Shown: positions 7,242 through 48,849, numbered from the stretch's first letter. The stretch: 64,000 nucleotides of DNA from a virus (IMGVR_UViG_3300035428_000399:1-64000); one strand, 5' to 3'. Numbers and translations: made by a program. The notes: generated by a model not told the origin, from the sequence alone.

Positions 7242-8363
7242 ATGAAGTATCAACTCCCGGATAATATAGACCAGCATTGGCTATGGAAGGATGACCCTGC
7301 TAAATTCCAGTGGTGGCTCCTGCTTTTGCGTGAGGTAGGCGACGGAGAGACCCAGCGCATGGTCCGGGGAGTGGTCTGTAAATTCGGCTTCGGCGAACTT
7401 GTAACTACCCAGGGAGAACTTGCTAAATTGTGGGGAACGACTACTGAAAAGGCTCAGGCATTCCTCCGAAAATTGGAGTCAAAAGGAGAGATTAGACGCA
7501 AAACTGACGCAAAACTGACGCGGATATTTATATGTAATATAGAGGATTACGATATTCTTGGACGCAATCTTGACGCAAAGTTGACGCACAGACGCAAAGT
7601 TGACGCAATCTTGACGCAGTTAATAGACGCAATATCAGGCTTTTCAGAAGATGATAGACGCAATCTTGACGCAAAGTTGACGCAGTTGGCAGATTTCAAA
7701 AGAAAAGAACCAAAAGAAATATATACTACACAAATTACGTCTCCTAACGGAGACGTGCAAGAAGATGAATCTTCTTGCCCTCTTTCACGCGCGCAAGAGG
7801 TGGTTGGGGATAAAAAAGCCAAGGCTAAAAAAGAACCTAAGCCCAAAAAGGAGAAAACAAAAAAATCTCCAACCCTTGTGGCTCGGGGACGGACGGTTTT
7901 TGAAGAATTTTACCAAAAGCTGTACGACAACCCCTACTACTGGACCGCGAAAGATGGAATGCACATGAAGCAGCTGCTACAAAAAATTTCTTTCAGCCGG
8001 CAACATCGTGAAAATCCCCTGCCGATAGATGATGATTCAGTTCTCGCGGCCCTCGGTCAGTTCCTCGAAAGAATCAACAAAAGCTGGGTTATGGATAACT
8101 TCTCAGTATCGACCATAAATAGCCAGTACAACAACATTATTTCTGAAATACGAAACGCATCAAAAACAGTAACCAATGGCAGAATCCTTAATACCACGGC
8201 AGCGCAAGGACGGCCAGCAGTCGGAGCCGACCTCTCTGACAGTTATCGTCAACGAGCTTCTATCCTCGCGGACATCGAAGAGGCAGACCGAAGATACCTT
8301 GAAAAGCGTGAGTCCGTTAGCGATGTCACTTATGAAGAACTACCGACCCTCCCAGGTGGCTAA
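7242..8363 (+). CDS. phage replication initiator (lambda O-like organisation)
   Basis: N-terminal winged-helix-like region, internal iteron array, low-complexity linker. Confidence 0.7.
   Translation: MKYQLPDNIDQHWLWKDDPAKFQWWLLLLREVGDGETQRMVRGVVCKFGFGELVTTQGELAKLWGTTTEKAQAFLRKLESKGEIRRKTDAKLTRIFICNIEDYDILGRNLDAKLTHRRKVDAILTQLIDAISGFSEDDRRNLDAKLTQLADFKRKEPKEIYTTQITSPNGDVQEDESSCPLSRAQEVVGDKKAKAKKEPKPKKEKTKKSPTLVARGRTVFEEFYQKLYDNPYYWTAKDGMHMKQLLQKISFSRQHRENPLPIDDDSVLAALGQFLERINKSWVMDNFSVSTINSQYNNIISEIRNASKTVTNGRILNTTAAQGRPAVGADLSDSYRQRASILADIEEADRRYLEKRESVSDVTYEELPTLPGG
7495..7684 (+). repeat. iteron array, putative replication origin
   Basis: GACGCA at 7495, 7506, 7561, 7572, 7583, 7591, 7602, 7613, 7626, 7657, 7668, 7679 (plus GACGCG at 7517), mostly 11 bp apart; A-rich tract follows. 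Confidence 0.8.
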
Positions 8364-8942: not shown

Positions 8943-9034
8943 TTGCAGATTTGATTAAAATAATTGCCCATATATTTGCGTATATGATTATTTTTGATTA
9001 CTTTTGTATATGCAAATAAGATGTTTAATCAAAA
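8943..9034 (+). promoter_or_regulatory. conserved promoter module, copy A
   Basis: TTTG 8975, 20-nt spacer containing ATGATTATTT, TACTTTTG 8999-9006, TGCAAATAAG 9011, TAATCAAAA 9026. Confidence 0.8.
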
Positions 9035-9866: not shown

Positions 9867-9887
9867 CATCACTTAAATATCAATAAT

Positions 9888-10514
9888 ATGAATCTTTTCA
9901 AAACACTTTCAGAAGTGCTTGGCAACGGTTGCACAGCGACCATAACCATCGCACAGAAAGACGGCATCATGACCGTCGGCGTACTTCCAGGGAACAATCT
10001 CGTAAAGGACGGAGCCAAGAACAAAATCGTCCCCCTAAACATATCCGGCACACCTGAAGAACTCGACGAAGGATTCGTCGATGCCATCGCCGAGCCGGTC
10101 CGTAAGACCGCCGGTTTACTCGTAGATATGGCATCCTATGAGCAGGCCGCTGAAGAAGCCAAAGCCAACTCCAAAATGGAGGAAGAAAAGAAAATTGCCG
10201 AGGCCAATCGTAAAAAAGACTACGAAGGTTACGTCAATCTCGCCCGCACCAACCTGAAGGAGCAGAAATACCGCGACGCTCTAAAGTGTGTGGAATCCGC
10301 ACGCAAGGTCGCTCTTCCCTCTGATAAGACAGCCCTCGACACCCTGATGAACGAAATCAACTCTGCCTCTGGCGAGGGCGCGCTGTTCGGTCCATCCGAA
10401 GATAAGTCCGACGGTAAGAATATATCACTCAACGCCCCCAAGGGCAAGAAAGATAAGCCGGCATCCAGTGAGTGTGAAAGCGATTGTGAAACCAGCGAAG
10501 ACGAGGAGGAATAA
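9888..10514 (+). CDS. PRTRC system protein E
   Basis: VPLNISGTPEELDEGFVDAIAEP motif; first gene of the cassette. Confidence 0.85.
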   Translation: MNLFKTLSEVLGNGCTATITIAQKDGIMTVGVLPGNNLVKDGAKNKIVPLNISGTPEELDEGFVDAIAEPVRKTAGLLVDMASYEQAAEEAKANSKMEEEKKIAEANRKKDYEGYVNLARTNLKEQKYRDALKCVESARKVALPSDKTALDTLMNEINSASGEGALFGPSEDKSDGKNISLNAPKGKKDKPASSECESDCETSEDEEE

Positions 10515-10517
10515 ACC

Positions 10518-10727
10518 ATGGCACTCAATACATCGAAATTCCCGCGCGTCTTCAAGAAAAAAGATGAAATTCTTCCTGACCCGAATCCTATGCTCTCGCC
10601 GGAGGAGGTCATGGCCTACTACTCCAACCAATATCCTGAACTGACGACTTCCAACGTCTTCGGCCCCAAAATCGAGAACGACAAGGCCGTCTACGAGTTC
10701 AAGACCACCGTAGGAACAAAAGGATGA
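10518..10727 (+). CDS. PRTRC system protein C (ubiquitin-like)
   Basis: LPDPNPMLSPEEVMAYYSNQYPELTT; ends in VGTKG. Confidence 0.9.
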   Translation: MALNTSKFPRVFKKKDEILPDPNPMLSPEEVMAYYSNQYPELTTSNVFGPKIENDKAVYEFKTTVGTKG

Positions 10728-10746
10728 ATAGATCGGAATCCGAAGA

Positions 10747-11943
10747 ATGGAGACTTCTCTCAAAAATAGGAAGGATTCTACTCAAGGAGCAAGGTCGCCG
10801 CAATCATCTACGAGCCGTGGAAGAACGCGAGCCGGTTTTGTTACCGAAAAGAAAGTGCAGAATGCCTTTCTGAACGAAGTCCTCAGCCCGATACCATTAG
10901 TCAACCTGCCCGTTTGTGATAAACCATTCGGGCAGGTTACTGAAAATGGGGTTGTCTATTGGACCTATAAGAACGAGTTCAAGATAGACGCCGCCAGCAA
11001 TATCGAGTATCTCGCGGCTGCAGTTGGGGCATATTGCAATATCCAATGCGCTGAATTTGACTTTACTCCGTCCGATAACGCTTTGGCAGATTTGAGTGAA
11101 TTGCTTTGCATAGCCAAATCTGTGGCGCCTACAGACCACGAAATTAGCCTTGACTATGACGAGAAGATGAATATGGTTGTCATACTTGAGTACGACTTGT
11201 GCGATTTTGACTATAACACTATCTTCTTCTTCCCGGTGTCATTCGTAGAAAGACTTCCGAAAGAATTAAGGCCGATTGTAACCAGCGCATACAGCGTCCT
11301 CTCTATCTGCAACTACGCGCAGATGCCCGAAGACCATTGTGATGCGGCGTACACCCTGGGGCTGTGGGACGATGGCGAGCAATTAGCCGAACTGAAAGCT
11401 GAGGACGAGGAAAGATACAATGAACTAAAATCTTTTATAGACTCATACCTTGAGGGAAAAATCCATCAGCTTATATGCGAATGTCATTCTTTTCCCAGCG
11501 ATCTTGACAAGATGCGCTCAGACCTCGAAGAAGCCCGTGCCAAATATGCGGGGACTCAATATGGCCCTCTACTAAATTCAATACGAGACGGACTGATATT
11601 GAGTGAGGAAGATAAATGGATAAATTATATTCGTACACCGTCTTGGTGCAATATAGAAGATTTCGACGAACACGATGAAGGAATGATGGACCCCAGCCGC
11701 CTCTTTGTTATGGTCTACGATTTAATGGACGAGATTGTAGAAGGCATAACTGACTGCATCAACGGCGAAGCAAGTTCAATCGACGTGAGTGGTCTGTACG
11801 ACTTTAGGATACTTACTCCGGAAATAGATTCTGACTTTTGTGCATCGGACTTCCCGAAAAGGTGGGCCGAGTGGTTCGGCAGTTTCGTAGATATTACAGA
11901 ACATATAAGAAATGAGCAATCAACTGACACGAGCGCTGGATGA
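10747..11943 (+). CDS. PRTRC cassette protein (protein F position)
   Basis: acidic 398-aa ORF between the C and B genes, overlapping B. Confidence 0.6.
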   Translation: METSLKNRKDSTQGARSPQSSTSRGRTRAGFVTEKKVQNAFLNEVLSPIPLVNLPVCDKPFGQVTENGVVYWTYKNEFKIDAASNIEYLAAAVGAYCNIQCAEFDFTPSDNALADLSELLCIAKSVAPTDHEISLDYDEKMNMVVILEYDLCDFDYNTIFFFPVSFVERLPKELRPIVTSAYSVLSICNYAQMPEDHCDAAYTLGLWDDGEQLAELKAEDEERYNELKSFIDSYLEGKIHQLICECHSFPSDLDKMRSDLEEARAKYAGTQYGPLLNSIRDGLILSEEDKWINYIRTPSWCNIEDFDEHDEGMMDPSRLFVMVYDLMDEIVEGITDCINGEASSIDVSGLYDFRILTPEIDSDFCASDFPKRWAEWFGSFVDITEHIRNEQSTDTSAG

Positions 11944-12604
11944 AATGTACGACCCCAAAATGGCTATCGTCGTATATTCTTCAACCAATTCAGCCCCATA
12001 TTTGGAGCGACGCGATATTATTGACGGCAAAATGGGTGCCGGTAAGCCCCTAACCAAGAAATGTGTTACCGAAATATTCAGGGCTATCGTAGAGGACTCT
12101 GAAGACCTTTCGCAAGGTTATCACGGCGTAATCCCTAAGAACTTGCTTTATGCCGACACGACCACAGGTCGCACCAGACTTATCTGGTACAATCCTCCCA
12201 TGAAAAGGAGAATGTATTTTGTAGATTCACTTGGTATACCCGAAGGAGAGGTTGTCATGCCAGGGATAGTTTATGAAGCAAACGATAATTCTCTGAAAGT
12301 CTACTGTTTCAAAGGGAAGTCGCCTAAAGACCCTCTCTATCAGGCTCCGTTCTTCAATGTGAGCAATCATGCGGTCTGTCTTGGCACTGCCAAAACGAAA
12401 CGTCCGAAGTCTTTAACCTATACCGAGGCGATGGAGTATTGGGAGACAATGTTTTGGAACTCGGAGTTTTCCCATATCTACGGCGGTAATCCAGTGAAGG
12501 GCAATCTTGCCGTGATAACCAAGAACTGCATCGAAAAAGGCGAGCCGTTCCCGATGGACGCGCTCATAAAGTCGGAAATCAAACTGAAAGACATTCTCAA
12601 ATGA
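11912..12604 (+). CDS. PRTRC system protein B (prokaryotic E2-like)
   Basis: LIWYNPPMKRRMYF, LYQAPFFNV, VCLG, FWNSEFSH. Confidence 0.85.
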   Translation: MSNQLTRALDEMYDPKMAIVVYSSTNSAPYLERRDIIDGKMGAGKPLTKKCVTEIFRAIVEDSEDLSQGYHGVIPKNLLYADTTTGRTRLIWYNPPMKRRMYFVDSLGIPEGEVVMPGIVYEANDNSLKVYCFKGKSPKDPLYQAPFFNVSNHAVCLGTAKTKRPKSLTYTEAMEYWETMFWNSEFSHIYGGNPVKGNLAVITKNCIEKGEPFPMDALIKSEIKLKDILK

Positions 12605-13359
12605 AAACTCATTTCACGCATAACTACATCACAAATCCACGGCACCGCGTAACTGTGAACCTGATCGGAGCCGGCGGAACGGGTAGCCAAGTTGTTGGCG
12701 CCCTCGCTCGCATGGATTATGCCCTCTACAAGTTAGGACATCCTGGGTTGTTTGTGACTATCATCGACGACGATATTGTTACGGAAGCGAACATCGGCCG
12801 GCAATTATTCAGCGCGTCGGATATAGGGTTGAACAAAGCCAATGTGCTTGCAACTCGTATCAATTCTTTCTACGGGACTGATTGGGAAGCCAAGAAGATG
12901 ATGTACGATGGAAAGAACTCAGCCGCCGCCAACATTACCATAACTTGTGTCGATAGTGTAAACGCCCGCGTAGCCATAGGTAAGAACCTAAGGCAAGCTG
13001 GTGGCTTCGACGACAGGTTACAAATCTATTGGCTTGATTTCGGCAATCAGCTCGACCGAGGTCAAGTCATTCTCGGAACACTGAAAGATGTGGAGCAACC
13101 GAAAAGCCGGAAGTATAAGACCGTGAAAAGCATGAAGTGTGTAGACGAGTTCTTCAACCTTAGCGAGGTCAAGGACGAAGACAGTGGGCCAAGCTGCTCA
13201 CTCGCGGAGGCTCTGCGCAAGCAGGATTTATTTGTCAACTCATTCCTGGCTCAGACGGGATGCGCTTTGCTGTGGAAACTCTTCTATGACGGCAACATTG
13301 ATATGCAAGGTGCATTTGTCAATCTGGCTACCATGAACGTAAACCCCATCAAACTATGA
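12601..13359 (+). CDS. PRTRC system ThiF (E1-like) protein
   Basis: IGAGGTGS, DDDIVTEANIGRQLF, CVDS, SCSLAEALRKQDLFVN. Confidence 0.9.
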   Translation: MKTHFTHNYITNPRHRVTVNLIGAGGTGSQVVGALARMDYALYKLGHPGLFVTIIDDDIVTEANIGRQLFSASDIGLNKANVLATRINSFYGTDWEAKKMMYDGKNSAAANITITCVDSVNARVAIGKNLRQAGGFDDRLQIYWLDFGNQLDRGQVILGTLKDVEQPKSRKYKTVKSMKCVDEFFNLSEVKDEDSGPSCSLAEALRKQDLFVNSFLAQTGCALLWKLFYDGNIDMQGAFVNLATMNVNPIKL

Positions 13360-14102
13360 TAACGGATTACAAGAAACCGATGATTCAGGTATTCGAGAAA
13401 TACCGACACAAGTTTGAGCCTTATAGTCTGTTCGAGAGGTTCATGGAGTTTGTCATTACGGGTTTCGATATAACATTCTCGGCAATTGAGAGACCATTCA
13501 GCAAGGAAGAGTCGGAGGTGTGCCTGGAACTTCTCAATGTATGGGTAACATCAATGAACGAGGCTCTGAAACAAAAAGAGTGGTATGATCTACTCGGCGA
13601 TATGTATATGGATTATCTCTCCGGCACCATGAAGAAGCATTGGACCGGACAATATTTCACTCCTATGCACATCTGCGAATTTATGGCTAAAATTACAGAC
13701 CCTGGAGAAATAACCGATGAAAGGGTCATGGACTGCGCTTGTGGAAGTGGCCGTATGCTTCTCGCCTCACATATTCTTCATCCAGGAAATTACTGCTGTG
13801 CTCAGGATATGGATAGAATTTGCTGCCTTATGACTGTGTGTAATTTTATTATTCACGGAGTTAACGGAGAAGTGGTATGGGGAGACAGCCTCAATCCGGC
13901 TGATTATCGCGAAGGTTGGAGAACTAATGAAGCTCTAAACGTTCTCGGTGTTCCCTGTGTGAGGAAGATGGATAAAATGGAAGCCACGTCATATCTCAGC
14001 GGTCTCGCTATGCTGGCAGAGAGGAAAGAATCAGTCAAGATACCCGCCAGCAAAGCTGAAAAGAAAAAAGCAGTCGAACCCATTCAATTAAGTCTTTTTT
14101 GA
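13356..14102 (+). CDS. N-6 DNA methylase-like protein lacking catalytic motif IV
   Basis: GQYFTP and DCACGSGRML present; no NPP(Y/F) anywhere in the 248 aa. Confidence 0.75.
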   Translation: MITDYKKPMIQVFEKYRHKFEPYSLFERFMEFVITGFDITFSAIERPFSKEESEVCLELLNVWVTSMNEALKQKEWYDLLGDMYMDYLSGTMKKHWTGQYFTPMHICEFMAKITDPGEITDERVMDCACGSGRMLLASHILHPGNYCCAQDMDRICCLMTVCNFIIHGVNGEVVWGDSLNPADYREGWRTNEALNVLGVPCVRKMDKMEATSYLSGLAMLAERKESVKIPASKAEKKKAVEPIQLSLF

Positions 14103-14879: not shown

Positions 14880-14941
14880 CTTGCATATATGATTATTTAT
14901 GTTTATCTTTGCAAATGCAAATAAGATGAATTTAATCAAAA
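14880..14941 (+). promoter_or_regulatory. conserved promoter module, copy B
   Basis: CTTG 14880, 20-nt spacer, TATCTTTG 14904-14911, TGCAAATAAG 14916, TAATCAAAA 14933. Confidence 0.8.
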
Positions 14942-17666: not shown

Positions 17667-18377
17667 ATGAAAAAGTATATTGGCAAAGAAGAGATTTCTG
17701 CAGAACCCATGACCTATGGGGAGGCATTCAAAGACGGCATTATTCCGGAGAACGCATACGTCGAAGAGCTCTCTGACAGTAAAGGGTACAAAATAGTCGG
17801 AGTCGACAAAGCTGTCGGCTGGTTACCCAAGGATGACTTCGAGTCTTTATATCGCGTAGCCGAAACGCACCTCGACCGCATCAACATCGAGGACAAAGAC
17901 CTGCGCGAGAAATGCTGTCGTCTCTCGGATTTCATCAACAACAACGATAAATTCAAGGGACTGTCTCTGGGGGACAAGGCTATGCTTGTGGCACAGTTCC
18001 ACATGATGAACGCTTACTCCAGCATTCTATCGCTGCGCCAGTCTACTATTGAAGGCGGCGTGAGTGGTCGCCCATACGGATTCTCCTTCGAGCAGGTACT
18101 TCCTCTCATACGTGAGGGATACGCAGTCCGACGTAACGGATGGAACGGAAAGGGGCTCATGGTGTTCAAGCAGATCCCGGCTCATATCGGCTCCGACATC
18201 ATCCCCAAGATGCAGTCCCTCCCCAACGAGGCCAAGAGGCTCATCCTGGCTCATGGGGACCACATCGACTATGTTTCTCAGTGCCTCATCTTCAATGCCG
18301 ATACCGGCGAAGCCAATTCGTGGGCGCCATCCATCAGCGATGTCTTTGCCAACGACTGGGAACTTGTCGTAGAGTAA
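17667..18377 (+). CDS. three-domain fusion: KYIG...WLPKDDFE domain + Acb2-like + Tad2 (DUF2829)-like nucleotide-sponge candidate
   Basis: aa 138-236 FSFEQVLPLIREGYAVRRNGWNGKG...WAPSISDVFANDW; aa 66-125 RINIEDKDLREKCCRLSDFI...AQFHMMNAYSSILSLR. Confidence 0.75.
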   Translation: MKKYIGKEEISAEPMTYGEAFKDGIIPENAYVEELSDSKGYKIVGVDKAVGWLPKDDFESLYRVAETHLDRINIEDKDLREKCCRLSDFINNNDKFKGLSLGDKAMLVAQFHMMNAYSSILSLRQSTIEGGVSGRPYGFSFEQVLPLIREGYAVRRNGWNGKGLMVFKQIPAHIGSDIIPKMQSLPNEAKRLILAHGDHIDYVSQCLIFNADTGEANSWAPSISDVFANDWELVVE

Positions 18378-22913: not shown

Positions 22914-22999
22914 CTCATATGCAAATAAGATATCTAATCAAAAATCCGACAAGATGCTTTCCCTAAAGAGCGCATCAGGGACTCAAAATTAAATATCAA
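22883..22999 (-). ncRNA. candidate trans-acting antisense sRNA (5' end approximate)
   Basis: minus-strand promoter at 23005-23036 and minus-strand intrinsic terminator at 22883-22913; body complementary to repeated gene-start motifs. Confidence 0.65.
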
Positions 23000-29877: not shown

Positions 29878-30094
29878 AGGAAAGATGAACGAGTGCGGCA
29901 TTTCCGTAAAGGAACTGTCTGAGCAGACGAAGATTAACCCCAGCACAATCTCGTCATTTCTAGTTGGCAACCGCGCTATCAGCAACGAGAATCTTGACAC
30001 GATTCTCGCGGCACTTGAACTCACGTTGGTGCCGAAGGCGAAGTTCACATATCAGGGCAACGAACCCCAGATTGACCCCGGTGTAAAGGTGTGA
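29858..30094 (+). CDS. XRE HTH protein
   Basis: ISVKELSEQTKINPSTISSFLVG. Confidence 0.75.
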   Translation: MFREKIKGKMNECGISVKELSEQTKINPSTISSFLVGNRAISNENLDTILAALELTLVPKAKFTYQGNEPQIDPGVKV

Positions 30095-30168
30095 TGTCTT
30101 ACGTCGAGTATTTACAAATTTTACAGTATCCATGAAATAGGCTAAAGTTGTCAAAATATCAGCAGTGA

Positions 30169-31530
30169 ATGAGTGCGGTCGAGGTCCACGTTTTCAGCAA
30201 GCAAGCTCAGGCACTTGACTATCTGTCTCCCGACGATAGTGAGGTGTCCGAGGTGCTGTATGGTGGCGGAGCGCGTGGAGGTAAGACCTATCTCGGTTGC
30301 CTATGGCAAATACTGCGGAGAATAACGATGGCCGGATCCGTAGGCTTCATCTGTCGAGAAGAGAGTGTGAAGCTGCGTGATACGACTGTCGTTACTTTTT
30401 TTGAGGTTTTGACAGACTTACGCCTGAACTCGGTAGTAGAATTCAACTCGACGCGACTTATAGCCAATTTCTCCAACGGGAGCGTGATATATTTTCGCGA
30501 CCTGAAGCTCATGCCCTCCGACCCGGAGTATGACCGTCTCGGTTCCTATGGTATCACGGACTGTTTCATCGACGAAGCCCAGCAGATATGCGCCAAGGCT
30601 ATCTCGGTTCTCAAAGGACGTTTCTCTGTTCTTAGTGGCAAGAACCCAGACGGCACTAGATGGCATACCATCCCGAAAGCCCTTTACACTTGTAACCCCC
30701 GCCGTAACTGGATATACACGGACTTTGTGAAGCCGGCGAAGATGGGAACGATGGCGCCGCACCGACGTTTCATCAAATCCCTGCCTCTTGACAATCCCCA
30801 TGTGGACCAGGCTTACATTGACAACTTGCTCAAAGCGGACAAAGTTACAGTGCAGCGTCTATACTTTGGCAATTTTGAATATGATGACGACCCGGCGACG
30901 CTCTGCGATTTCGATGCGATCAACGACCTCTTCACGAATGAGCATGTTCTCCCCAAGCCTGCGAGGTCTTGCTCGGCCGACATAGCCCTGAAAGGACACG
31001 ATAGGTTTATCGTAACTGTATGGGAAGGAAATGTATGCCGTATCGTTGTCGATGAGGCCTATTCCCCCGGTAAGCAGGTTTACGAAACTCTGCGCGATGT
31101 TCTCAAGAAAGAGAAGGTCCCTCGTTCTTACACGATAGTCGATGCCGACGGTGTGGGCAGCTATCTGGAGAGTTTCTTGCCGGGCATCAAGGAATTTCAC
31201 GGCGGAGGTCAGCCCAACAACCGGGCCAAGTATGAAAACCTGCGAGCTGAGTGCTACTTCAAACTGGCCGAGCTTATCAACGAGCGCAAGATTCGTGTAA
31301 TATGTACCGATGAGCAACGCGAAAGGCTGATGGAGGAACTGGGTGCCCTCAAGCAGGCATACATCGACAATGATGTGCGCCGTAAGGGTATCATTCCGAA
31401 AGAGACTATGAAGATTATCATAGGTCGTTCTCCAGACTATATGGACGCGCTTATGATGAATATGTTCTTCCGCCGGACCAAGCCTACCAATGGGGCGAAG
31501 ATGGCAGTTAAGTCGTACAGCACTGAATAA
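30169..31530 (+). CDS. terL: terminase large subunit
   Basis: LYGGGARGGKT, FIDEAQQ, TCNP; nuclease motifs SADIA, IVDADGVG, SPDYMDAL. Confidence 0.92.
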   Translation: MSAVEVHVFSKQAQALDYLSPDDSEVSEVLYGGGARGGKTYLGCLWQILRRITMAGSVGFICREESVKLRDTTVVTFFEVLTDLRLNSVVEFNSTRLIANFSNGSVIYFRDLKLMPSDPEYDRLGSYGITDCFIDEAQQICAKAISVLKGRFSVLSGKNPDGTRWHTIPKALYTCNPRRNWIYTDFVKPAKMGTMAPHRRFIKSLPLDNPHVDQAYIDNLLKADKVTVQRLYFGNFEYDDDPATLCDFDAINDLFTNEHVLPKPARSCSADIALKGHDRFIVTVWEGNVCRIVVDEAYSPGKQVYETLRDVLKKEKVPRSYTIVDADGVGSYLESFLPGIKEFHGGGQPNNRAKYENLRAECYFKLAELINERKIRVICTDEQRERLMEELGALKQAYIDNDVRRKGIIPKETMKIIIGRSPDYMDALMMNMFFRRTKPTNGAKMAVKSYSTE

Positions 31531-47016: not shown

Positions 47017-48849
47017 ATGCAAGTAAGAAATATCGCACTCAGCGAGATTGTTCCCAGCGAACTCAATCCTCGCAAGACGTTCAGCCAGGAAGAACTCGAA
47101 GAACTCGCCCAGAGTATCAAGGAGAACGGCCTCATTCAGCCCATCACTCTCCGCAAAATCGGCAACAAGAAAGACTCCAAGTATGAAATCGTGTGTGGCG
47201 AACGCCGTTTCCGCGCCTGCCAGCTCATCGGAGCCAAGGACATCCAGGCCGTCGTCAAGGAACTCAACGACAAGCAGGCTTTCGCTTGCATGATTATCGA
47301 GAACCTGCAGCGCAAGGACATCGACCCGATGGAAGAAGCCGCCGCCCTTAACCGCCTCTACGCCGAAGGCACCGTAACGGTAGTGGAAATGGCGAAGATG
47401 CTCGGCAAAAGTACAAGTTTCGTTTCGGGTCGCATCCAGCTCCACAATACCATCGAGCCGTTTGTCAAGCTCATGCGCGACGGCGTTCTGGTCCTGACAC
47501 ATCTTCTCGACATCTGCAAGCTGCCCGCTGAGCAACAGCAGACTCTCTACGACTCGTGTTTCACCGAGGCAAGCCGCGAGCGTTGGCCGTACAAATTCCC
47601 CAACATGCCCCAGCTCCACGAAATGATAGACGAGCATGTCATGAACCATCTGTCTACGGCCCGATTCAGTCTTACAGACGACACCCTCGCCGGCGCGTGT
47701 GCCTGCGACAAGTGTCCTCTCAACACCGCCAACAATCCCGACAATGCCCGCGATGTCAGCACTCCGCGTTGCATGAAGCGAGAATGCTTCCTCGCCAAGG
47801 CCCGCGAGTCAATCTTCCGCGAGGCTAAGGAAGCCTCCAAGAACGGCATCAAGATTGTCTTCGCCGGTGATTATGCGGAGAGCGAAGCGCTCCTGCAGGC
47901 CGCAGATGAATATGGTCTGGTCGTTTCGGGTCTCGGCAACCGTCAATATGTGGCGGAGCCGGTAGCTCCTGACCCCGCGCAGTATAAAGACGAAGAAACC
48001 TATGCAATCCGCAAGGCGAACTACGACAAGGTCCGCGCCGTCTTCGACGACAATCTCAAGGACGGCACCATCACCCCGGTCTACGAGATATGCTTCAGCG
48101 GACTTCTCAGTGGCGAAACCAAGTATGTCTACTATGTGCCCGACACTGAGGAAGAGCCGTTTGCCGGCAACAAGCTCGCCGACAACAATCGTCGTATCTC
48201 CGAACTCAAGGTCAAGCTCCACGAAGCCAACGAGCACCGCAAGGAAGAGTTTGTTGAACGTCAGCGCTCGTTCATGGAATCGGCCGAGTATTCCACGCTC
48301 AACACCGACCTCTCACCCGTAGAATCGCTCATTTTCCGTGCGCTCGTCCTCAAGCGTCTGCCCGTGGCATTCAAGGAATCCATCGGCTGTGGCGAAGCCC
48401 AGGCCAAAGACTTCCGCGAAGCCGGCGGATCTGTCGAAAAGAACTTCAACGCCATTGCCCGCGAATTTATTCGCTCAATTCTTTCCGAAAAGAGCGTGAA
48501 CTTCTCGCCTGAATTGGCAGAAATGCTCTCAGCAATCATGGAAGACCGCTACGCTCATAACGTCGATGAGATTGCCAAACAGCTCGACGCACGATATAGC
48601 CAGTCTAAGGCCGGCATTCAGGCCAAGATCGACGAACTCCGCGAGGAGAACGAGAAAGAAATCCAATCGCAAGCCGCTATCAGTCCCGACGCTAAAGCCG
48701 AAGAAGCAACCGAAACCGGCGAAGCCGAGCCGACCGACACAACCGAGGTAGAAGAGGCGGAATCGCCCAGTGTGCCGGACGCACCCGAAGAAGTCGAAGA
48801 AACTCCTGACGCTACAGATGCGGCCGAGGACACCGACAAGGAAGAATAA
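47017..48849 (+). CDS. ParB/Spo0J family protein (PRTRC ParB-like)
   Basis: NPRKTF...LAQSIKENGLIQPI...VCGERRFRA...ENLQRKDI; CACDKCPLNT...RCMKREC; acidic tail. Confidence 0.88.
   Translation: MQVRNIALSEIVPSELNPRKTFSQEELEELAQSIKENGLIQPITLRKIGNKKDSKYEIVCGERRFRACQLIGAKDIQAVVKELNDKQAFACMIIENLQRKDIDPMEEAAALNRLYAEGTVTVVEMAKMLGKSTSFVSGRIQLHNTIEPFVKLMRDGVLVLTHLLDICKLPAEQQQTLYDSCFTEASRERWPYKFPNMPQLHEMIDEHVMNHLSTARFSLTDDTLAGACACDKCPLNTANNPDNARDVSTPRCMKRECFLAKARESIFREAKEASKNGIKIVFAGDYAESEALLQAADEYGLVVSGLGNRQYVAEPVAPDPAQYKDEETYAIRKANYDKVRAVFDDNLKDGTITPVYEICFSGLLSGETKYVYYVPDTEEEPFAGNKLADNNRRISELKVKLHEANEHRKEEFVERQRSFMESAEYSTLNTDLSPVESLIFRALVLKRLPVAFKESIGCGEAQAKDFREAGGSVEKNFNAIAREFIRSILSEKSVNFSPELAEMLSAIMEDRYAHNVDEIAKQLDARYSQSKAGIQAKIDELREENEKEIQSQAAISPDAKAEEATETGEAEPTDTTEVEEAESPSVPDAPEEVEETPDATDAAEDTDKEE

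Follow-up and report, generated by a model that had tools for sequence, protein, structure and literature searches.

A cluster of five genes was found between positions 9888 and 13359 of IMGVR_UViG_3300035428_000399:1-64000, a stretch of viral DNA of 64,000 nucleotides (nt) which is referred to here as the window. The genes are close-packed, all lie on the plus strand and follow the order E, C, X, B, ThiF; E, C, B and ThiF are relatives of the PRTRC proteins of the same names and X occupies the position of PRTRC protein F (Table 1). The window corresponds to the first 64 kb of an IMG/VR provirus record of 89,123 bp, rated 100% complete, and encodes a terminase, a tape measure protein, a head protease and a portal protein. 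The closest relatives were prophages in metagenome-assembled genomes (MAGs) of Muribaculaceae, which share the flanks of the cassette and encode ThiF proteins 94–96% identical to that of the window, and the source element is a temperate phage of gut Muribaculaceae. The operon is probably a reduced, Bacteroidota-type PRTRC system, native to its phage, for thioester-type conjugation of a ubiquitin-like protein (Ubl) to other proteins through E1- and E2-like enzymes.

Table 1. Features of the cassette and of related elements in the window (positions in nt from the first letter of the window).
Feature	Position	Strand	Evidence or remarks
PRTRC protein E, 208 aa	9888..10514	+	PF19556 4e-39, 134.5 bits; TIGR03741 52.4 bits (cut-off 37.95)
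PRTRC protein C, 69-aa Ubl	10518..10727	+	Prok_Ub PF14454 1e-24; TIGR03738 69.2 bits (cut-off 45.95)
X, 398 aa, mostly helical, in the PRTRC F position	10747..11943	+	no family match
PRTRC protein B, E2-like	11912..12604 (alternative start possible at 11945)	+	Prok-E2_D PF14460 5.5e-33
PRTRC ThiF-family E1-like adenylating enzyme, 252 aa	12601..13359	+	TIGR03736 252.4 bits (cut-off 144.75)
N6 DNA-methylase-like gene, same transcription unit	13356..14102	+	PF02384 3.5e-13; 4-nt overlap of its start with the ThiF stop
Leader and start region of gene E	9873..9890	+	TTAAATATCAATAA, one base, ATG
Repeated promoter/leader element, copy that bounds the cassette's transcription unit upstream	8976..9023	+	48-nt direct repeat
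Repeated promoter/leader element, next copy, downstream unit boundary	14881..14928	+	85% identical to the copy at 8976-9023
ParB, 610 aa, 33 kb from the cassette	47017..48849	+	TIGR03734 130.6 bits (cut-off 278.6); TIGR00180 140 bits

A first-pass annotation of the window had proposed these gene identities, in the order E, C, a protein in the F position, B and ThiF, and Pfam and TIGRFAM matches at the positions in Table 1 upheld both. It had also described the cassette as a complete PRTRC set and had named the TIGRFAM PRTRC hidden Markov models (HMMs) as a check, which gave a divided result: ThiF, C and E scored above the curated cut-offs, B and ParB scored below them and A and F were unmatched. 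The description as complete is therefore not supported, ParB in addition being unlinked. Protein B yielded 95.3 bits with TIGR03737 over nearly its full length, below the cut-off of 131.45; by sequence it is clearly homologous to PRTRC B and falls outside the TIGR03737 equivalog. No PRTRC ParB linked to the cassette was found, the best candidate in the window being the distant, sub-cut-off gene in Table 1. Protein A, the JAB/MPN peptidase, was searched for with PF14464 and TIGR03735 and gave no match over the whole 89,123-bp record, and both models matched in phages Dina and BgVeeders33, which served as positive controls. The earlier statement that the window lacks a JAB peptidase is thus correct and extends to the full record.

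X gave no matches in Pfam, NCBIfam, PHROG or PADLOC, and the protein F models (TIGR03742 and PF14456) left it unmatched even at E values up to 10, in a search in which the F protein of Dina scored 353 bits. Comparison by hhalign with two, and then with 15, PRTRC_F proteins was also non-significant; the best E value against the 15 was 0.14, in an alignment that is collinear and pairs the few conserved acidic motifs. X was consequently rejected as a PRTRC_F protein in the sense of these models, and may be a very distant homologue.

Relatives retrieved with a ThiF profile comprised 121 IMG/VR contigs and 553 stretches of species genomes, and 80 of each were retained, giving 160 loci from IMG/VR and from Bacteroidales genomes. 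Nearly all of them share the order E, C, an open reading frame (ORF) of 357–421 aa, B and ThiF, and in most B and ThiF overlap by 4 nt, as they do in the window. Other queries retrieved little: a single ThiF protein found no related loci, two F proteins found one locus and a plasmid tblastn search with Dina F found two records. Prok-JAB was above cut-off in none of the 80 related viral records. Four weak Prok-JAB matches of 12–14 bits were seen in these records, three of them in a 154-aa ORF of one sub-lineage; this ORF is situated a few kb 5' of the cassette in the records of loci L064, L072 and L075 (for example G056:C1:3135-3239), where it aligns with Prok-JAB model positions 69–95 at 13–14 bits.

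The last residues of protein C in the window are VGTKG, and the stop codon is next. A terminus of the form G-[TVKD]-K-G with the stop directly after it was present in 143 of 145 JAB-less loci of the Bacteroidota type. In contrast, in the JAB-bearing proteobacterial phage cassettes of Dina and BgVeeders33 the Ubl motif RAVG(R/T)KG is followed by ∼60 further residues, the JAB-bearing side of this correlation comprising these two examples only. The simplest reading of the sequences is that the Ubl would be matured by protein A where the cassette is canonical, and that tail and peptidase have both been lost in the Bacteroidota type. Protein C would be made ending at the reactive Gly; a JAB maturase would therefore not be needed, and none is encoded. 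The pattern supports the proposal of the first-pass annotation that a Ubl already ending in Gly needs no processing. No prior description of this pattern was found.

The residues expected of the two enzymes are strongly conserved. Across ∼135 ThiF sequences, including those of the proteobacterial phage cassettes, the GAGGTGS loop, Arg67, Asp118 and Cys199 (in SGPSCS) were invariant, and the ThiF profile matched the active adenylation domains of Uba1, Uba6, UBA3, ThiF and Uba5. Cys199 is the putative catalytic residue. In protein B the invariant columns among 40 sequences, Dina and BgVeeders33 included, were Pro46, Gly72, Trp92, Pro117, Pro146, Asn149, Cys156, Gly158, Glu178 and Phe181, with Asn149 and Cys156 in the context N-V-x5-V-C-L-G. 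His188 was near-invariant in the same alignment, in agreement with the conserved His that follows the Cys in this type of protein (Iyer et al., 2006; PMC1779556). Ratios of non-synonymous to synonymous substitution rates (dN/dS) against the close relatives L089 and L090 were 0.00 for C, 0.05 for ThiF, 0.06–0.07 for B, 0.07 for E and 0.11–0.13 for X, values that indicate purifying selection on all five genes.

From the gene identities, the conserved residues, the conservation of the operon, the purifying selection and the JAB/tail correlation, we infer the following chemistry. ThiF would adenylate the C-terminal Gly69 of protein C and take it onto Cys199, the Ubl would then be handed to Cys156 of protein B, and B would transfer it to a lysine of a target protein. 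Both cysteines are present, and oxyester chemistry of the Bub type is therefore not expected. Because a conserved Lys precedes the terminal Gly of the Ubl, trypsin should leave a single-Gly remnant (+57 Da) on the targets.

Adenylation by ThiF might instead serve a sulfur carrier or another non-conjugating purpose, as in systems of the ThiS/MoaD-ThiF type. ThiF weakly matches thiamine and molybdopterin adenylyltransferases, and a Gly C-terminus is needed by sulfur carriers also. However, every cassette has a dedicated E2-like protein whose Cys is invariant, the unit contains no sulfurtransferase, rhodanese or cofactor-synthesis genes, and the setting is that of a mobile element; this explanation appears highly improbable.

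The gene neighbourhood was surveyed in 47 non-redundant viral loci by taking two ORFs at either end of the cassette, which yielded 178 flanking ORFs. The sole strongly recurrent family was the DNA polymerase III beta clamp, present in 16 of the 47. A direct search located the clamp gene, dnaN, no more than 120 nt 5' of E and co-oriented with it in 25 loci, and within the neighbourhood in 31. DnaB or Lin1244 genes were found 3' of the cassette in some loci, and topoisomerase III lies 5' of it in the form carried by integrative and conjugative elements (ICEs). The six-gene unit dnaN-E-C-X-B-ThiF was observed in several deep lineages, at L014 (1404-2534), L018, L024, L026, L033, L066, L074, L080, L086 and 16 more loci. 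No earlier account of a clamp gene immediately 5' of E was found. The survey suggests an association with replication genes more than with anti-defence genes, and such neighbourhoods would make proteins of DNA replication or DNA processing, from the element or its host, the first candidates as targets of conjugation.

Proteins E and X were further characterised by structure prediction. The AlphaFold2 (AF2) model of E (pLDDT 80) starts with a small beta head at the N-terminus, continues into a helix of 70 residues and a helical hairpin, and ends in an acidic tail that is disordered. Between the hairpin and the tail lies a motif, G-x-[LM]-F, in which Phe167 was invariant in the alignment. E of the ICE type is longer, at ∼320 aa, and has a Gln/Pro-rich insert and a Y-x-D-F-P tail. 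A Foldseek search of the E model against the PDB returned nothing significant; the predicted form of E suggests a coiled-coil scaffold bearing short linear motifs. The family of X contains 1189 representatives at 50% clustering in a profile search. Its AF2 model is confident (pLDDT 87, pTM 0.79). No PDB entry reached an E value of 0.001 in Foldseek, the top VIA-align score among 48,161 chains was a Z of 5.3, to generic helical proteins, and the ESM Atlas yielded no usable match. X thus has a confidently predicted fold without a match in the PDB; no prior description was found of this fold or of X as the fastest-evolving protein of the cassette. E and X would act as accessory or specificity subunits, or would themselves be substrates.

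The clamp-binding pentapeptide is Q-L-[SD]-L-F, which the invariant G-x-[LM]-F of E resembles. A special case of the conjugation reading is that E docks on the beta clamp through this motif and that the clamp, or host or element proteins bound to it, would receive the Ubl from B. The replication context, with dnaN directly upstream of E in several deep ThiF lineages, and the clamp-like motif would make the replisome the most interesting candidate target. Yet only 18 of 122 E proteins contain the strict form Q-x-[SD]-[LM]-F, and that of the window has EGALF; neither this phage nor the ICE forms have dnaN beside the cassette, and the adjacency elsewhere may reflect only the placement of replication modules. 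A replisome modifier of precisely this kind is unlikely. If true, it would be a viral and bacterial counterpart of the ubiquitylation and SUMOylation of eukaryotic PCNA, carried ancestrally by phages in Bacteroidota and acquired by conjugative transposons later.

Several points weigh against conjugation as the function of the cassette. ThiF is a minimal 252-aa E1 with no recognisable ubiquitin-fold domain for E2 recruitment, and for this reason its hand-over of the Ubl to B is assumed. The putative E2 fold of B is taken from its Pfam family assignment; sequence searches of solved structures gave no match for E, C, B or ThiF as single queries, nor for the B profile. The alignments of E, X and B contained no invariant lysine that could be a built-in acceptor, and dnaN was not found in this phage. 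A bacterial Ubl pathway lacking a deconjugating peptidase is unusual among those characterised (PMC11601596), and the literature searched contained no papers testing the function of any PRTRC system.

The cassette could alternatively act in counter-defence, whereby the Ubl would be conjugated to host immune proteins, or the pathway would blunt Ubl-based defences such as Bil, early in infection or induction. The cassette lies in an early region near DNA methylases, and 4 kb 3' of it (17667-18377) is a gene for a fusion of crAss001_48 (Sequestin-type) and Tad2-like domains, a credible anti-defence sponge. X, E and B also diverge much faster than ThiF and C, as would be expected with variable partners: at 50–60% ThiF identity the median identity was 58% for C, 40% for B, 33% for E and 22% for X, and in 27% of pairs X had no BLAST match, which identifies X as the fastest-evolving protein of the cassette by this comparison. 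In a prophage of P. vulgatus, protein B is reported to be a recurrent mutational hotspot during host switching (preprint 10.64898/2026.10.01.756045). Against this, the flanking ORFs of the 47 viral loci recur as beta clamp, DnaB, Lin1244 and SNF2 rather than as known anti-defence families, the operon also rides conjugative transposons, and dN/dS is low, with no positive selection seen at the level of the gene. Neither is the cassette targeted by a template-like repeat of a diversity-generating retroelement (DGR) here. A counter-defence role is accordingly judged to be somewhat unlikely.

The possible DGR was indicated by a reverse transcriptase-like ORF outside the window, a 539-aa open frame at G000:C1:71077-71361 that scored 25.5 bits with RVT_1, below the cut-off. 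A search for a DGR template-like repeat matching the region 9.5–14.2 kb found none, the best match being at chance level (E 0.39). Targeting of protein B by a DGR was rejected: the record does have the reverse transcriptase, near 71 kb, but no template-like repeat matches the cassette.

The conjugation reading was compared with known systems. Canonical PRTRC systems (TIGR03734-03742), as in phage Dina and in proteobacterial ICEs and plasmids, encode homologues of E, C, B and ThiF, and the arrangement E-C-(F/X)-B-(A)-ThiF is the same. They have in common with the cassette of the window the RAVG(R/T)KG motif in the Ubl, a B protein with the invariant Cys and Asn, and carriage on mobile elements; a 'rapidly diverging alpha-helical protein' was described mid-operon by Iyer et al. 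(PMC1779556), and X is likewise central. Unlike them, the cassette of the window is JAB-less, its Ubl stops at Gly, its middle protein is unmatched to PRTRC_F/PF14456, B and ParB are below the curated cut-offs and ParB is unlinked. The operon of Bacteroidales conjugative transposons (BT2645-BT2649 and L142) has the same five JAB-less genes, the Gly-ending Ubl and the 4-nt overlap of B and ThiF; it differs in its long E of ∼320 aa, its position after DUF4099/DUF3945 and topoisomerase III, and its own ThiF clade.

Resemblance to the bacterial defence systems is partial. Bil types I and II have a separate Ubl, E2 and E1, no E3, an E2 presumed to choose the target and an expectation of thioester chemistry (PMC11601596), as does the cassette; Bil differs in being a host defence and in having a JAB peptidase and a large E1 that contains adenylation domains in tandem, whereas the cassette is carried by a phage. 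PADLOC models, of Bil and of others, gave no matches for E, C, X or B. Bub (6E/DUF6527) is also a bacterial set of E1, E2 and Ubl, and its type II is usually JAB-less too, but it employs oxyester intermediates, E1 and E2 proteins lacking catalytic cysteines, and a DUF6527 serine protease (PMC11601596). Pfam detected no DUF6527 in the cassette proteins, in which both cysteines are invariant. Cap2 of type II CBASS has a ThiF-type adenylation domain, and the ThiF of the window matched the PADLOC 'E1-E2' models and NF058523 weakly, over ∼70 residues of the Rossmann part only. Cap2 differs as an E1-E2 fusion that conjugates the cGAS-like enzyme itself, with no separate Ubl and with the JAB protein as Cap3. 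Bacterial Ubl pathways are an active field, in which the mechanisms of CBASS Cap2, Bil and Bub are solved and the three systems are interpreted as host defences; PRTRC is a major family that is uncharacterised in the literature searched. Many gut Bacteroidales phages and conjugative transposons have the reduced, JAB-less form as a regular component, so that it is carried by invaders and not by defenders. It offers experimental handles in a processing-free Ubl, two defined predicted catalytic cysteines, an accessory protein (X) unmatched in solved structures and a recurrent link to the sliding clamp.

The location of the cassette in a phage, which the first-pass annotation had regarded as unusual, is not. 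The 121 IMG/VR contigs all encode a relative; a phrog_2-type large terminase was detected in at least 30 of the 80 viral records examined, as in the record of the window, and two records are closed by direct terminal repeats (G023, 97.9 kb, and G066, 48.4 kb). PRTRC genes are annotated in Ralstonia phage Dina (NC_055026) and have been discussed for Burkholderia phage AB2 (PMC13366799), and the P. vulgatus prophage is a further prior instance. The operon type corresponds to row 6d of Iyer, Burroughs and Aravind 2006, which includes 'Bthe' (PMC1779556), and BT2645-BT2649 of B. thetaiotaomicron, listed in a transcriptome paper, are these PRTRC genes (PMC10434189). In L142, on a Bacteroides chromosome, the operon follows DUF4099/DUF3945 and topoisomerase III in a conjugative-transposon setting. 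Neither the family nor its occurrence in phages is therefore new, and the cassette is common in both phages and conjugative transposons of Bacteroidales.

A ThiF tree was rooted on Dina and BgVeeders33. The dnaN-linked viral forms were basal, and above them were a 56-row clade of phages and prophages with short E, which includes the window, and a 60-row ICE clade with long E (SH-aLRT 95), members of which are nearly identical across bacterial families. No earlier description of phage forms basal to the ICE clade was found. The branching would fit a cassette that was borne by phages first and by ICEs later; the very long branch that bears the root makes this order a lead and not a result. L121, L130 and L145, from MAGs labelled Clostridium sp. 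and Lachnospiraceae, also contain ICE-type cassettes that are nearly the same as those of Bacteroidales, which reflects a binning error or else a transfer across the phylum boundary.

The cassette is native to the phage and is not an insertion, because it has in common with the phage its repeated promoter/leader elements and because its flanks are kept in diverged relatives. The core of the 48-nt element, ATGCAAATAAGA, has 11 copies on the plus strand of the window against 0.5 expected, and the element seems to mark the transcription units of the phage. The ATGCAAATAAGA sites span positions 1030-49896, for example 9010, 9252, 14915, 22919, 42187, 45767 and 49885. The 12-mer TTAAATATCAAT has exactly five plus-strand copies, with 0 expected by chance: it precedes the genes at 1423, 9888 (E), 43660 and 47017 (the 610-aa ParB), and the fifth copy is inside a small RNA (sRNA) candidate region at 22989. 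The claim of the first-pass annotation that the start regions of E and ParB match the sRNA seed holds as sequence, TTAAATATCAAT being present at all three places. This leader is kept before E in L089-L092, and the methylase-like gene after ThiF in L089-L095 and L097. Judged from its sequence organisation, the cassette is likely to be an operon expressed as a unit.

An origin as an unrelated fragment of an ICE or plasmid that landed in a prophage could be proposed, given that the closest named systems sit on ICEs and plasmids and that 48-nt direct repeats bracket a 5.9-kb block. However, the bracketing repeats are copies of the element present 11 times in the window and are not att-like; as phage-wide regulatory elements they were rejected as insertion boundaries. 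The G+C content is even across the cassette region, the last gene overlaps the downstream gene by 4 nt, and relatives with only 75% ThiF identity retain the flanking WYL_2, methylase-like and downstream genes. With the ThiF of the window also placed in the phage and prophage clade, apart from that of the ICEs, an insertion is largely refuted.

The leader that E and ParB have in common bears on another possibility, that the cassette is a partition or maintenance module working with ParB. The exact leader of gene E precedes the 610-aa ParB, which weakly matches PRTRC ParB, and both the family name and some published accounts speak, loosely, of a ParB/ThiF partitioning cassette (PMC13366799). ParB is nevertheless 33 kb away here and is not among the recurrent neighbours in the 47 viral loci, no paper testing a partition role was found, and an E1-E2-Ubl set has no known part in partition. 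Such a role is considered very unlikely.

Synonymous divergence (dS) was uneven along the operon. L089 has recent X and B in common with the window, and L090 recent WYL_2 and E, which shows that related phages have recombined and that a breakpoint lies inside the operon, between C and X. In L089, the closest relative, an extra 0.5 kb (7615-8127) with a 170-aa ORF lies between C and X. Elsewhere in the window, the phrog_2 terminase match at 29956-31530 begins ∼200 nt 5' of a 453-aa ORF and spans five TGA codons there; this region may contain the terminase start, or a split or interrupted terminase gene.

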